Shown one piece after another: positions 10,644-52,669 of a stretch of DNA of 64,000 bases. The position numbers and the translations under genes were made by a program. Every line of letters starts with the position of its first letter. Position 1 is the stretch's first letter. The DNA comes from Escherichia phage JES2013. Below the pieces are notes generated by a model, which saw only the letters and a program-made list of their open reading frames with translations, searched no databases and had not been told where the DNA came from. The DNA lies in sequence record KC690136. One strand, written 5' to 3'.

Positions 10644-11200
10644 GAAAGAAAGCTGTCAAAGCACCCGTTCATAACGGGTGGCTAAAAGATTCTAAGGACA
10701 TAGCCAACTTTCGAAAAGAATTGTCAGAGGAGCAGGATGGTCTTGATCCGATCTTGTGCGAGCCACTTCGTAAGCCTTGTTTAGATCATGATCATCTGAC
10801 TGGTCGTTGCAGGGGTGTTTTGTCTCAGTGCACTAATACCTTTGAGGGGTATGTGCTTAAATACTGGATGAAATACTGTAACGAGTATACAGATTGCAGT
10901 TTATCAGAGGCGTTGCGCCGGATGGCTGACTATTTGGAGAAAGACTACAGCGACTTCCCGCTCCACAAAAACTACAGAGATGATATGACAAAGTTCTTGA
11001 GGAGATGCTCTAAAGCTACGATCATTGCACGAGCAGAATCAGATCTCAATCTTGTCATTAATCCAGAGTGCACCAAGCATGAGGCTATTGAGCTCTACAT
11101 GCAGGAGTTTATAAAGAAAACTGAGGAGAGAGATTTCTATGGGGATGAAAAAGGTATTCAATCCTTGCGACTCAGTCCTGATCAGGATGAAATACCGTAA
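10595..11200 (+). CDS. Endonuclease VII-like recombination endonuclease
   Basis: LCEP..CLDHDHLTGRCRGVLSQCTNTFEG matches T4 gp49 CxxC...LDHDH...RGLLC..CN..EG; 5' end overlaps upstream ORF, true start uncertain. Confidence 0.65.
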   Translation: MDRQGASGGIIAKRKIRKKAVKAPVHNGWLKDSKDIANFRKELSEEQDGLDPILCEPLRKPCLDHDHLTGRCRGVLSQCTNTFEGYVLKYWMKYCNEYTDCSLSEALRRMADYLEKDYSDFPLHKNYRDDMTKFLRRCSKATIIARAESDLNLVINPECTKHEAIELYMQEFIKKTEERDFYGDEKGIQSLRLSPDQDEIP

Positions 11201-38702: not shown

Positions 38703-39541
38703 CACACAATTAGCTGCCCGGCTAAAGTGCTGGAAGCACCTATAACACATCTTTCAACTAAATTTCCCACCACAACAATCACTTACCTCCCATACATGAC
38801 TGTTTGCTTGTTTAGTGAGCAGTCATGCCTTGACATTCTTGCCTATCCTGATAAAATTAAGTTCTTCTCTTTTCTTTTACCGAGTAATTCGGGTTTTCTG
38901 TTCTCTTCGGTTTGAAGGGGTATGGAGATACACCTGAGTGAACAGGGTGAACAACCGAACATTTGGCTATGGCATTAGCATGGCGAAGCGGACGGGTGAC
39001 GAAAGAGGGGCCGGAGGACACCAGTCACTGCCATATGGTATATGGGTGATAACCTGAAGAGTCTGAATAAGTGTTTAAGTACCAGTCAGAGGAAAAGGTG
39101 AATGGTAGCCGAAGGGGGAGGGGGGTTTCTTGTATCTTTAATTTGTATATTATGTATACACTTGTAAACCAATCTCATTTGAATTTGTTTACCACACAAA
39201 GTGGATAGAGACAAATATTACCTATTAAACTTGAATTATTTATAGAAAATACCACAACACTACTTAAGTCTTTGATTTTACACACAAATCCTGCAGATAT
39301 TCACCCTCCATATTTAACATACTTGTAACATATTCCATACTCTACCTGCCCGATCAATTCACCCAACTACATCCCCATATTTTCCCTGTCTGTACTACCC
39401 CTGCCCCGCCGGGAGTCCCGTCATATCTGGCTTTCCAGCAAATATCACACCCACAAATATCATTGCCTGAAGAGGGTTTCGTCCCATAATACATGCCTTA
39501 CCTGAAGAGCGCTTCATATACCCCGTAAATTTTTTAATTGA

Positions 39542-39574
39542 CCCCCTCCCCGCCGCCGGAGGGGTCGGCTTTTC
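39542..39574 (+). terminator. Terminator-like hairpin CCCCTCC-ccgccgcc-GGAGGGG + TCGGCTTTT
   Basis: GC-rich stem followed by T tract in gene-free region. Confidence 0.5.
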
Positions 39575-40120
39575 CCACACAGACCTGAAGAGTCAGCCAG
39601 AAATATCTGAATGGACCCAATTCTGCCCTGTTATGAGCCGTAGCGACTGGAGTGCTGCCAGGCGGACGAAATGGGAATACTTCTCATTCTTATAACAATT
39701 CTCAAATATCGAGGCAGTGAGGCAAATTAATAGGTAAGGCCGTTCACATAGTGGCACAACATTTGCAGTCTATCTGATGTGGTTGAATGAGAATACCTAT
39801 CATTGTGAGAATAGTTATCATTACGGGCAATTTAACATAATACCCATTATGCGCACCACTGGCGATACATACAGGGATTGATAACATGAGTTACTGTTTA
39901 CGCATATAACAATTATATTTCTTATCATTTGTGTGGGATATAGTTAGCAGCCGATAGATTAGATATTGACCTGCGGACTTCTGACCGTCTAGACGTCTAA
40001 ACGCCCACACAACAAGGCTTATACATACATCGCTGAATGTAAACATGGCCGCAAAAATGCTACCATACAAGATTGTAAATTTTTCATGCAGCACTTGACA
40101 AAGAGGAGAAAAACTTGTCT

Positions 40121-40162
40121 GACACTTTAGACATACTGGTGACACAATATGACACTTTAGAC
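40121..40162. repeat. Direct repeat GACACTTTAGAC (two copies, 30 bp apart), followed by iterated TGTTTAC/TGTTCAC motifs to about 40360
   Basis: Exact 12-mers at 40121 and 40151; at least eight (A)CTGTTTAC-like motifs in the next 200 bp. Confidence 0.55.
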
Positions 40163-40449
40163 TTAATTGACATGCCTGACTGTTTACGCTGTCACTATTC
40201 GCGCTATTACTATTCACTCCCTTTACTGTTCACGCTCTTACTGTTTACATGCTTAATGGTTTACATGCTTAATAGACTGCATGTCTAATAGTTTACATAG
40301 CTAACTGTTCACATACTTATCATTTACATGATTGACTGTTTACACAGAGATGATAAGCCATGACATTCGTTTGCATGACAATAATTAACAAGATAACAAT
40401 TGACAAGCTAACAGCCAACAAGCTGACAATTAACTTGTTTACAATAGAT

Positions 40450-40615
40450 GACATAATATAAAAGCAGGGCAACTATTAGAAGATCTATAGTTGCCTTGCT
40501 TGTTATGTCATGATTAACTAAATACAAGGCAACTATGATCTGATTAATAGTTTGCAAACAAACTATCACGGGGGTGATGGTTACTGCTTTTATATTATGT
40601 CGCGACTCCGTCGCG
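40450..40615. repeat. Nested inverted repeats: 18-bp arms GACATAATATAAAAGCAG / CTGCTTTTATATTATGTC around palindrome GGCAACTAT-N10-ATAGTTGCC, plus CGCGAC-tcc-GTCGCG
   Basis: Arms at 40450-40467 and 40584-40601 are exact reverse complements; inner palindrome 40468-40495; GGCAACTAT also recurs at about 40517 and 40634. Confidence 0.6.
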
Positions 40616-41295
40616 CCATGCCATTCGTTTGCATAGTTGCCTTATTGTTACAGATAAAATAATTGTATTGTTAATTATTTCTTATCTTTCTATTAGTCAT
40701 CTAATGATTCCAGTCAATATAGTAATGTACAGTAAACATTAGACGACTAAAGATTTATCTGCTTATAATAACTTACCGTGACAATTTCGGACTGTTTACG
40801 AAAAATGTTGGCACCTAAGCTGATTTATGTTATGCAGTTTACACGAATAATTATTTTATGCAGGTATTGACTATTCCATTATTCTATGGTTGGAATAAAT
40901 ACTTAGCAGACTATAGAATGGTGAGCGTACGTAAATTCTGAGATCTGGCGGCTATAGTTATACTCGATTTTTCACGTAGAGCACGCTTTTGTGGTTATGT
41001 AAGTGTATGACTTATAAAGATTTTTAGTTGTTGACAAGACACTGAAGATATGCATCAGGTTAAATTTTGTGCAATAGCTGCATTACGTGCAATTTTGGAA
41101 GGAAAAACGGGTAAAAATAGCCCTGCTACCACACAATGAAAAGTTATGCAATAGTTATTTTACATGTATATTTGTACAGTGTGTGGGGTTGATGGCTCGT
41201 CAATTATTCCACTTGCCAGGTAGGGCCGTTTATGGTAGGGGGAAGATCAGACAAAAAGAAAGGGGCCTAAGCCCCTTGATAATTCAGTTAAAAAA

Positions 41296-42457: not shown

Positions 42458-42668
42458 AGTGTTTTCCTCTCTTCTGGTTGTTGTGTGGGCACTTTTGCCC
42501 CTTCAAGATAAATGTTACCCCACCCCATGGCAGATGTCAACGGTTTTTATAGTTCTTATATGACAGGCAGGCCCGGTGATTGTCTCCCCCCGTCGCCAGG
42601 TGCCTGCCGTGAAACAAGTATAACAAAAAACAGGACCATTGCAAGCCCTGTTTTGTAGTTTATAAATA

Positions 42669-44385: not shown

Positions 44386-44619
44386 TCAACTATTTTCAAA
44401 AAATTTTTCTGCTGTGATATTCTTCCCGGTAGGGTTCGCTACTTTCAAAATTTTATCATGCACTGGACGCCCAAAAGAATAAGCGCCGTACACAGTAAAC
44501 CAATAATCGCCGTCAGGTTGTACTATTACTGCCGCATATGGTACGCCTTTTTCGTTTTTGCTGACAAAATAGATCACGTTGCCATTAATAGCCTCGGCGC
44601 GTTTAATTTGTTCCATCAT
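44386..44619 (-). CDS. Hypothetical protein
   Basis: 77-aa ORF. Confidence 0.45.
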   Translation of the reverse strand: MMEQIKRAEAINGNVIYFVSKNEKGVPYAAVIVQPDGDYWFTVYGAYSFGRPVHDKILKVANPTGKNITAEKFFENS

Positions 44620-45778: not shown

Positions 45779-45919
45779 TTTGTTTCTCCTTTCTGGTTTT
45801 TGTGTTGGTGGGGATTAGCTCCCCGTTGATTATTATTATCCATATTTCGGACCGGATTGCAACACCCCGGAAGAAAAATTTTTTGAAAAAGTTAGGCCCC
45901 CAGGGATCGGGGGCCGTTA

Positions 45920-51161: not shown

Positions 51162-51323
51162 TCAACCATTAGTTAAAATTATTTTTGCCCCTGCCAGGTT
51201 AACCATCATTTTTTCGTACTCTTCTTTATGTTCCAACGCTCCCGCCATAGCCTTTTCAACCAGGGCGATAGCCTCAGCGTCATTAATAGCTACATTTTCC
51301 AGGGGGATCATATTACCTTTCAT
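51162..51323 (-). CDS. Hypothetical small protein (53 aa)
   Basis: sORF MKGNMIPLENVAINDAEAIALVEKAMAGALEHKEEYEKMMVNLAGAKIILTNG; strong SD GGGGAGG; preferred over antisense track ORF 51109..51360. Confidence 0.4.
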   Translation of the reverse strand: MKGNMIPLENVAINDAEAIALVEKAMAGALEHKEEYEKMMVNLAGAKIILTNG

Positions 51324-51590
51324 TTTTGTACCTCCCCTTCAATTGTTACCTATCCTATAGCATAGGCCCACCAGGTTTACAAGCCTTCATTCTCTCCTGC
51401 CTGGTCAGTTAGGTCCTGCCAGGCTGGCCCCGCCAGGTTGCAGCGGTTAGCGCATCAGGTTAGAAAAATTTTTTGAAAAGTGTTGACAGCGGCCCCGCCA
51501 GGTGGCACAATATACCTATCGAAAGGACGGCAGGCACCGGTGACGGGGGAGGCAACCACCGGGGATGGACGCTGCATAAAATGAGAACGG

Positions 51591-51601
51591 TTATCATTAT
51601 C
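51591..51601. promoter_or_regulatory. Fur-box-like motif TTATCATTATC (module 1)
   Basis: Exact 11-mer of the reverse complement of E. coli Fur consensus GATAATGATAATCATTATC. Confidence 0.3.
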
Positions 51602-51718
51602 ATTTAAAAATTTATGCAAAAAATCCTTGCTTTCTTTGTCCTGTGTGATACTATAATAACAAGCCGGGGCAACAGGGGCCGGGAGACAATCACCGGGCCT
51701 GCCCGTTATTCTGCAAAC

Positions 51719-51735
51719 GAGAATGATTATCATTC
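51719..51735. promoter_or_regulatory. Fur-box-like 7-1-7 palindrome GAGAATGATTATCATTC (module 2)
   Basis: GAATGAT-T-ATCATTC perfect inverted repeat; contains AATGATTATCATT, an exact 13-mer of the Fur consensus reverse complement. Confidence 0.3.
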
Positions 51736-51864
51736 AAAATTCTAAATGAGAACTCCTCGCATTTAATAAATTTAATTAGCATGCTAATTACCCTCCGTAA
51801 CAATTTCCTATAAAACAGTATCCCATAAAATATTTCCATATAGAAATTTTAAAAATCCATTTCT

Positions 51865-52027
51865 GAAAACGAAAAATCGATTTCGTCCCCAAAAATTTCA
51901 GGTCGAGATCCGGAACGATTTCCAGAAAATCCGATTTAGAAAACGAAAAACAGATCGAGTACTGAGAAATTTATCGAGAAAAATTTTCAGAAAATTCAAT
52001 CTTTGAAACGAAAAACAGATCGAGTAC
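51865..52027. repeat. Direct repeats GAAA(A)CGAAAAACAGATCGAGTAC (two near-exact copies plus one degenerate)
   Basis: Copies at 51939-51962 and 52005-52027; degenerate copy 51865-51880; AAATCCATTTTAG also repeated nearby. Confidence 0.55.
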
Positions 52028-52339
52028 CTGGAAAGCTGCACTGCAACTTCAAGATAGTGGTTAGATTATTACCATAAAAGGTCAAGGGTAAGTGGAGGAA
52101 GTTCTAGTAGAAGGATGTGAGCATGTGTGGGAAATCTATAATGGTGGCCTGGAATATGGTGCAAACGATAGGATGAGTTATTCAGCTTGTCGCGCCTACT
52201 CTGAAAAATCCATTTTAGTTTTCGATCCATTTTCTGATTTTCTAAGAATTTTAAAATATCCAGCCCGGTGAAATATCAAAAGGAGGAAATCCATTTTAGA
52301 AATCCCCCTTATACTTGATATGCCAGGAATTTTCAAGTA

Positions 52340-52669
52340 TCAGTTGTCTTTGTTTTTAGGTTTGTACATGCGCAGAGGTATGGTCTTTGTAACATTCCAT
52401 TTCCTCAACCCTTCCCAGCTCCAGTTGTGGGCGTGGTATCCGGTTATGCATGCACTACTGGAGTGATCGTAAGCATAAGAGAACGCTAAGCGCACCAGGT
52501 GGGGCCAGTCCTTCCATGGTTGTGGACCGTAAGCTTTTCTCCAACACCGACACAAACTAAATGTCTCAAGGATAGGAAGGATAACAAACCCATACACTGT
52601 CACCAAAATAGTCAGTGCAATGATTGTCAGGAACACATACCCTGCAGTTGAAATGATGATCTCTGTCAT
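52340..52669 (-). CDS. Membrane protein
   Basis: N-terminal hydrophobic stretch TAGYVFLTIIALTILVTVYGFVILPIL. Confidence 0.45.
   Translation of the reverse strand: MTEIIISTAGYVFLTIIALTILVTVYGFVILPILETFSLCRCWRKAYGPQPWKDWPHLVRLAFSYAYDHSSSACITGYHAHNWSWEGLRKWNVTKTIPLRMYKPKNKDN

Follow-up and report, generated by a model that had tools for sequence, protein, structure and literature searches.

A gene-free region of Escherichia phage JES2013 (sequence record KC690136) carries two clusters of Fur-like boxes, one in each of two duplicated modules made up of a predicted promoter, a GC-rich stem-loop and a box. The identity of these sites as Fur boxes is well supported by our computational analysis. 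We consider it an evenly balanced proposition that the two sites are host Fur operators that would gate rightward non-coding transcription into a neighbouring set of AT-rich repeats. Their rank when scored with a Fur matrix, their 6-bp phasing, the 16-mers that they share with known Fur operators and their conservation in at least five genera together indicate that the boxes are not chance AT-rich palindromes. Throughout, the window is the whole stretch of 64,000 nucleotides that was analysed, and positions are counted from its first letter.

A gene-free gap with two promoter, stem-loop and box modules

Both boxes lie inside a gap of about 1 kb that contains no genes (51324-52340) and is flanked by small minus-strand genes belonging to a long leftward transcription unit. 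None of the flanking protein genes is an obvious Fur target. Over 51300-52350 the sequence is 100% identical to KP869102, the record of E. coli O157 typing phage 4, which belongs to Vequintavirus and is a relative of rV5. In gene order the window is colinear with rV5 (DQ832317), while the partial genome KP869102 is ordered differently. The paper describing the rV5 genome identifies no origin and is silent on Fur. The cluster formed by KP869102 and rV5 also contains records titled 'Campylobacter phage' that are near-identical to E. coli phages.

The features on which the analysis turns are these, in order along the window:

39667-39932, no strand: second, weaker Fur-like cluster, in a 2.4-kb gene-free gap (39673, 12.0 bits; 39807, 13.6 bits; 39914, 13.6 bits)
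42566-42644, minus strand: third promoter and stem-loop module (TTGCAA-16-TATACT, exact GGGAGACAATCACCGGG)
51483-51511, plus strand: P1, predicted sigma-70-type promoter of module 1 (TTGACA-17-CACAAT with TG; 10/12 in the promoter scan)
51529-51575, plus strand: GC-rich RNA stem-loop of module 1, with loop motif GGGAGGCAACCACCGGG at 51547-51563 (from fold and motif search)
51577-51607, no strand: Fur-like box cluster 1, with 19-mers 6 bp apart at 51577 (12.2 bits), 51583 (20.9 bits) and 51589 (9.9 bits)
51627-51657, plus strand: P2, predicted extended -10 promoter of module 2 (TTGCTT-16-TGaTACTAT overlapping a perfect TATAAT; read from the sequence)
51667-51704, plus strand: GC-rich RNA stem-loop of module 2, with outer stem GGGCA/UGCCC and loop GGGAGACAATCACCGGG at 51681-51697
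51713-51737, no strand: Fur-like box cluster 2, with 19-mers 6 bp apart at 51713 (13.5 bits) and 51719 (18.6 bits)
51745-51763, no strand: weak third box AATGAGAACTCCTCGCATT (14/18 to the phage-type consensus; 5.5 bits)
51834-52034, no strand: AT-rich iteron-like repeats of 62-74 bp (direct repeat family D1), into which P1 and P2 are predicted to transcribe

Two other readings of the region were rejected. A 92-aa minus-strand ORF that runs across both modules (rV5 ORF198 and others) is most likely spurious. In Klebsiella phage OY978796.1 the homologous promoter and box region (10891-11044) is annotated as tRNA-Met/tRNA-Ile, and a tRNA remnant was rejected when ARAGORN lent it no support: it found no tRNA gene in the window or at the OY978796 locus, and the sequence has no cloverleaf.

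The boxes score as Fur operators

The initial annotation had placed a Fur-like palindrome in each of the two modules, and both strings are found where it put them. TTATCATTATC at 51591-51601 is an 11-nt match to positions 9-19 of GATAATGATTATCATTATC, and GAGAATGATTATCATTC at 51719-51735 contains a perfect 7-1-7 repeat (GAATGAT-T-ATCATTC) and a 13-nt exact match to the Fur consensus, AATGATTATCATT; both exact matches and the repeat in module 2 were verified in the letters. The palindrome stands, but its register has to be adjusted, for the unit that recurs in related phages is AATGAGAATnATTCTCATT, offset from it by 3 bp. Taken as 19-mers, the site at 51583 (GAGAACGGTTATCATTATC) agrees with the Fur consensus at 16/19 positions and the site at 51719 (GAGAATGATTATCATTCAA) at 15/19; the best match in the remaining 64 kb is no higher than 14/19.

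We scored the window with a symmetric 19-mer weight matrix trained on 11 footprinted E. coli Fur operators, using coordinates from Chen et al. 2007 (PMC2189734) and sequences from E. coli K-12 (NC_000913.3) that were checked as Fur-operator-like; the consensus served as the seed of the matrix, which therefore keeps some dependence on how the sites first came to notice. The sites at 51583 (20.9 bits) and 51719 (18.6 bits) are the two best in the window, the next best reaching 14.3 bits. Both fall inside the range of the footprinted training operators (11.5-22.8 bits; 8.3-21.1 on leave-one-out). Simulation of 100 windows under a first-order Markov model gave a mean of 0.04 sites at or above 18.6 bits and a maximum score of 19.5. 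Across all 137,947 bp of rV5 the orthologues of these sites rank first and second, at 22.3 and 18.6 bits, and the third best, at 17.1 bits, is the orthologue of the site at 39807, so that the top three all lie within the two large non-coding regions. The initial annotation had named a low matrix score relative to genome background as grounds for refutation; the score is high, the sites being the best in the window and their rV5 orthologues the best in the genome, and the observation is stronger than that annotation had supposed. The two sites sit in duplicated modules and therefore amount to roughly one independent event; it is their conservation across genera that rules out chance independently. 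The motifs of DnaA, IHF, ArgR, PurR, Zur and NsrR were compared with the boxes by eye, and none fits.

In footprinted Fur regions neighbouring sites are exactly 3 or 6 bases apart (Chen et al., PMC2189734). Around the main boxes every site of at least 5 bits is in exact phase (51577, 51583 and 51589; 51713 and 51719), and both clusters show what that work leads one to expect of a Fur operator, namely overlapping sites 6 (or 3) bp apart that span about 25 bp or more (PMC2189734). An operator length of 25-31 bp fits two Fur dimers. At the position of the weak third box (51745-51763) a better box is present in Mydovirus, 4MG and Certrevirus. Some 10 nt past that box lies a perfect 18-bp palindrome, TAATTAGCATGCTAATTA (51773-51790), which close relatives keep with one or two substitutions.

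The second, weaker cluster is likewise phased, by 3, 6 or 12 bp (39667/39673/39685; 39783/39789/39801/39807; 39902/39905/39908/39914). The 2.4-kb gap that houses it (38940-41290) separates convergent transcription units and is the 'non-coding' box of the rV5 paper. Also in this gap are CCTGAAGAG repeats at 39050-39600 and, at about 40170-40350, densely arrayed repeats of the CTGTTTAC(A) type. Possible roles for the gap are those of an origin, a terminus or a packaging region.

The boxes match operators that Fur binds

Read on the opposite strand, 51714-51729 (ATAATCATTCTCGTTT) agrees at all 16 nt with the operator of the E. coli fhuA promoter, a site that was outside the matrix training set and that Chen et al. 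confirmed by gel shift (PMC2189734). At the orthologous position the sister phages L097 and L135 carry GAGAATGGTTATCATT, whose reverse complement forms the core of the fecIR oligo from a Fur EMSA (PMC2928814). Phage boxes share sequence with experimentally bound operators in two cases, the 16 nt of fhuA and the fecIR 16-mer in L097 and L135. The consensus drawn from all of the phage boxes, AATGAGAATnATTCTCATT, is letter for letter the Xanthomonas Fur box AATGAgAATcATTctCATT, the Fur-box consensus of Fur-regulated TonB-dependent receptor genes in Xanthomonas campestris (PMC1790865). A full-text literature search with six phage box strings returned only four papers: two print the string as a Fur box or as a Fur-binding oligo (PMC1790865, PMC2928814), and the other two are, to judge from their titles, about gut microbiomes rich in siderophores.

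The phage boxes are like the chromosomal Fur operators of E. coli (fhuA, fecIR, fepB, entC and fhuF) in their 19-bp pattern, in their 6-bp-phased overlap over 25-31 bp and in their range of scores. They differ in where they lie: the chromosomal operators overlap the -35/-10 elements of iron-uptake promoters, whereas the phage boxes are downstream or upstream of promoter starts and have no protein gene. Most Fur clusters, but not all, overlap the -35 or -10 element of the promoter that they repress.

The boxes are conserved while their flanks diverge

The boxes are kept in Vequintavirus, Mydovirus, Seunavirus (PVP-SE1, 4MG), Certrevirus (CR8, CB7), Phapecoctavirus (anhysbys) and one Serratia phage. 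Boxes likewise follow a homologous GC-rich element in several IMG/VR contigs, which were filtered from pattern searches that returned mostly chance matches. In all of the groups examined the boxes, from one to five per phage, stand directly after this element. Sixteen lineages from at least five genera have a box of 14.5-23.9 bits right after the stem-loop in spite of divergent flanks, and only the tail of module 2 is still found by BLAST in other genera. The cluster 2 box has an orthologue in all genera examined. The core of cluster 1 is kept in eight Vequintavirus genomes, reaching 23.9 bits in the divergent L135, a phage that has kept box 1 and lost box 2.

Within the phage boxes the high-information Fur positions (AAT at 4-6, ATT at 14-16, G7 and C13) are invariant. 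In Vequintavirus the box cores are fixed and the bases just after box 1 are variable; such changes as occur inside box 1 (C to T, G to A) increase the Fur score. The G at position 3 (GAGAAT) is near-invariant in the phages, compared with a frequency of about 0.15 in the E. coli training sites, and may reflect another constraint or another protein.

The modules themselves are capable of rearrangement. Phage AlexBoehm (L136, MZ501048) has a single hybrid module at 900-1100, in which P1 and the 5' half of stem-loop 1 are fused to the 3' half of stem-loop 2 and to box 2, which is kept. Evidently the two modules recombine, and a single module is sufficient for viability.

Promoters and the placement of the boxes

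P1 is conserved among Vequintavirus relatives and P2 is invariant in relatives; the equivalent module promoters of other genera read TTGCAA-17-TATATT or TTGATC-16-TATTAT. Relative to the predicted P2 start, box 1 lies at about -60 to -80 (with centres some 70 and 64 nt before it), immediately 5' of an A/T-rich stretch found ahead of the P2 -35 hexamer, and box 2 lies at about +52 to +76, 9 nt past the stem-loop. Seunavirus and Mydovirus have a strong plus-strand promoter (TTGACA-17/18-GAAAAT with TG) 13-15 nt beyond the end of the last box; it matches P2 in position and in the conserved gtgtga before its -10. Certrevirus and Phapecoctavirus have no strong promoter after the boxes.

No strong promoter overlaps the boxes on either strand, and P1 and P2 are clear of them. 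The minus-strand candidates that cross the boxes are weak: TTGAAT-18-CAGAAT scores 8/12 and has a -10 that Mydovirus and L053 do not share, and the spacer of TTCTCA-15-GATAAT is short, at 15 nt. Because the boxes lie off the strong promoters, we can only infer their regulatory target. A search for a U-tract terminator on the plus strand found none. In the homologous 700 bp of PVP-SE1 the promoter-like sites all point rightward, five being present against 1.1 expected.

Several other motifs accompany the promoters. A GGCCCCGCCAGGT-type motif occurs four times (51187, 51412, 51426 and 51491), once inside the P1 spacer, and may be an operator for some protein. The intergenic motif AAAAATTTTTTGAAAA is present at 44396-44410, 45872-45886 and 51462-51476, the last copy being just upstream of the P1 -35, and is a candidate UP element or common module of promoter-upstream regions. 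Phages of Mydovirus, Seunavirus, Certrevirus and Phapecoctavirus (L003, L005, L007-L012) have a GTAAA-N5-GTAAA repeat just upstream of the -35 of the module promoter, about 30 nt upstream of the module transcript. This direct repeat, which has the form of a CpxR-type site, is absent from the window. About 100 nt further upstream the same phages carry a strongly conserved GC-rich element (ACGCCACCCCACGGCGAAAAGGCGGGGCTAAC...GGAAGGTGGATCGCCGGTAG) that has no Rfam match and is also absent from the window.

The stem-loop is a candidate structured RNA

The stem-loop is about 45 nt long and has the conserved loop GAGACAAUCACC, with the box following 2-9 nt further on. Three copies of the GGGAGACAATCACCGGG motif occur in the window against 0.05 expected. 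One belongs to module 3 (42566-42644), where no good Fur-like box follows the stem-loop; in the CR8-like (Certrevirus) counterpart of this module a 20.7-bit box does follow. The -35 of module 3 lies inside a terminator-like hairpin, and another promoter (TTGACA...TAACAT) comes directly after the module.

Folds of single sequences agree with one another: an outer stem encloses an inner hairpin, and AGACAAWCA lies in the loop. Compared with shuffled sequence, module 2 folds with z = -2.1 and module 1 folds no better. The outer stem, AU(A/G)GCG / CG(C/U)(U/C)AU, was anchored by hand in nine non-Vequintavirus lineages and its strand was assigned from the numbers of G.U pairs and mismatches in orthologues: read on the plus strand it has 44 Watson-Crick pairs, 8 G.U pairs and 2 mismatches, and read on the minus strand 44/2/8. 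One of its pairs covaries between A-U, G.U and G-C. The difference in pair counts between the strands argues that the stem-loop is an RNA structure on the promoter strand, where it is predicted to begin at or near the 5' end of the transcript. Owing to misalignment of the 5' halves in the MAFFT alignment that it was given, RNAalifold predicted no pairs.

Rfam returned no family at gathering thresholds, nor at E <= 10 for the region or E <= 0.1 for seven related loci. A search of 185,579 bacterial genomes for the loop and box pattern gave only 10 matches, all in unrelated non-enterobacterial taxa, and no convincing copy; a host origin for the module was rejected on this evidence. Intramolecular pairing between loop and box was also rejected: the loop varies between U and A while the box is constant, with no covariation.

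RyhB and PrrF1/PrrF2 are Fur-repressed small RNA genes in which the Fur box overlaps the promoter and an intrinsic terminator lies at the 3' end. The phage modules share with RyhB and the tandem PrrF genes the combination of a short promoter-driven RNA with Fur boxes, and with PrrF the tandem duplication. A gene for a small RNA of the RyhB/PrrF type is nonetheless not what we found: in those genes the Fur box is on the promoter of an RNA with an intrinsic terminator, while in the phage the box is downstream of the stem-loop, no plus-strand terminator was seen and no Rfam family matches.

A candidate origin downstream

The repeat region (51738-52040) is 68% A+T, compared with 57% for the window. 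Three iteron-like direct repeats with (A)GATCGAGTAC and GAAAACGAAAAA are found at 51834-52034 and 52206-52299, together with two exact copies of AAATCCATTTTAG; within the corresponding repeats of other genera are CTCGATCGAG palindromes with AAAAATTTTTT tracts, and also promoter-like sites that point rightward. The repeat region holds no conserved ORF. A protein gene downstream of P1 and P2 was rejected, the 59-aa plus-strand ORF at 52092-52271 having stops in PDX, AlexBoehm, rV5, L138 and L057.

The T7-like DNA polymerase and primase-helicase of rV5 (annotated as ORF228 and ORF230) make the AT-rich repeats at 51.8-52.0 kb a possible transcription-primed origin. At the primary origin of phage T7 an AT-rich stretch follows the tandem promoters 1.1A and 1.1B. 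Gene content and layout here are of that kind, with tandem promoters that lead into an AT-rich region and with the T7-like polymerase and primase-helicase of rV5, and the likeness is one of resemblance only. Where the phage differs from T7 is in having host sigma-70 promoters, each with a structured RNA and a Fur-like operator, in front of what is a candidate origin.

A model for iron-responsive transcription and its alternatives

On the plus strand each module presents, in order, a predicted sigma-70 promoter, a GC-rich stem-loop and a putative Fur operator. These observations suggest a circuit in which, when iron is sufficient, Fe2+-Fur would occupy the operators. Occupation of box 2 would place a roadblock to elongation just past the stem-loop, and occupation of box 1 would occlude the A/T-rich region upstream of P2, a possible UP element, and so damp P2. 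Rightward non-coding transcription into the repeats at 51.8-52.0 kb would be limited as a result. When iron is scarce Fur would leave the DNA and read-through would rise. A rationale for such a coupling to iron is provided by the iron-dependent reductases NrdAB and NrdDG, both of which rV5 encodes.

Several observations sit uneasily with gating. The boxes are clear of the -35 and -10 elements of strong promoters, module 3 has no box and the number of boxes varies from one to five. The lack of a strong post-box promoter in Certrevirus and Phapecoctavirus makes a poor fit to purely local promoter control. The near-invariant G at position 3, found in about 15% of E. coli sites, also counts against the reading of the boxes as Fur operators.

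An alternative is that the boxes act as a decoy for Fur. Here the boxes would regulate no phage promoter; instead, hundreds of genome copies would soak up Fur and de-repress iron uptake and RyhB, which could help to feed iron to the iron-dependent ribonucleotide reductases. In favour of a decoy, the boxes are clear of the strong promoters; their copy number is flexible, with arrays of three to five near-perfect palindromes in Certrevirus and Phapecoctavirus; a second cluster lies in another gene-free region; and the presence of NrdAB and NrdDG in rV5 supplies a use for the iron. Multicopy Fur boxes titrate Fur in vivo, an effect that Stojiljkovic is said to have turned into the FURTA in 1994. 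A replicating phage genome would act like the FURTA plasmid, which is high-copy DNA with strong Fur boxes, although FURTA is a laboratory artefact used as an assay and its use by a phage is hypothetical. Although this is the main rival to gating, we think it unlikely. A pure sponge does not need the fixed place that the boxes occupy in every lineage, directly after the stem-loop, and PVP-SE1 and AlexBoehm make do with only one or two boxes. Titration would also come late in infection, by which time changes in host expression may matter little.

It is similarly improbable that the boxes bind a different dimeric protein, either a phage protein (such as an origin-binding or regulatory protein) or another host factor, and that their likeness to Fur sites is incidental. 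The GAGAAT motif and the AAATG...CATTT flanks are kept more strictly than in E. coli Fur sites, and the arrays of near-perfect palindromes adjoin iteron-like repeats. Yet an identical consensus is documented as the Fur box of Xanthomonas (PMC1790865), the fhuA and fecIR operators contain 16-mers identical to those of the phages, and phasing by 6 bp is characteristic of Fur sites. Other repeats have diverged between these genera and the two subfamilies to which they belong, but the motif has stayed the same, a pattern that a conserved host factor would explain better. The boxes have no DNA-binding gene as a regular neighbour, and the small plus-strand ORFs upstream differ between genera.

We regard as very improbable the idea that the palindromes act in RNA, as hairpins that terminate or process the small RNA from P1 and P2 or form its functional tail. 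They would be transcribed directly after the stem-loop, and some copies would give perfect hairpins of 8-9 bp, but the changes seen in them are non-compensatory. Their centre of symmetry moves by 3 nt between phages (GAATGAT-T-ATCATTC here, TGAGAAT-G-ATTCTCA in PVP-SE1), and rV5 lacks the predicted AAAUGA/UCAUUU hairpin of box 1, whose Fur score there rises to 22.3 bits. The absence of a plus-strand U-tract terminator and a module 1 fold no better than shuffled sequence also weigh against it.

That the boxes are functionless AT-rich palindromes, arisen by chance in an AT-rich inter-module region and doubled by duplication, is scarcely credible: the worry, voiced in the initial annotation, is contradicted by the scores (with about 0.04 such sites expected per window and the best matches in the 138-kb rV5 genome), by the 6-bp phasing and the shared 16-mers, and is effectively refuted by conservation across at least five genera despite diverging flanks.

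Putative Fur operators in virulent phages

Fur operators are textbook elements, and the known case in a phage is the stx1 toxin promoter of a temperate phage. Calderwood and Mekalanos reportedly described this Fur box, at the stx1 promoter of the Shiga-toxin phages, in 1987. There too a host Fur operator is carried on a phage genome and makes a phage-borne function responsive to iron. The stx1 operator, however, sits on the promoter of a toxin, a protein gene, in a temperate phage, whereas the boxes described here are in the non-coding DNA of virulent phages and are kept across a subfamily. Our literature search found no report of Fur operators in rV5-like or other virulent phages. Host Fur-type operators in a conserved non-coding control region of virulent phages, beside an RNA element that has not been described, would appear to be new.

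A broader proposal, doubtful but possible, is that the Vequintavirinae and Phapecoctavirus carry fixed Fur operators next to a new structured RNA in a possible origin. Non-coding or primer transcription of the phage, and perhaps the initiation of its replication, would then track host iron; with rising copy number these sites would draw Fur off the host chromosome and turn on iron uptake to serve the iron-dependent reductases.

The boxes mark a conserved and unannotated RNA element and a candidate origin in genomes that have no known origin. If Fur binds to them, then a group of phages in wide therapeutic and biocontrol use (rV5, PVP-SE1, relatives of phi92/phAPEC8 and the BASEL collection) would sense or manipulate the iron status of the host. 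Were this true, it would have a bearing on the performance of these phages in the iron-limited gut and in infected tissue.
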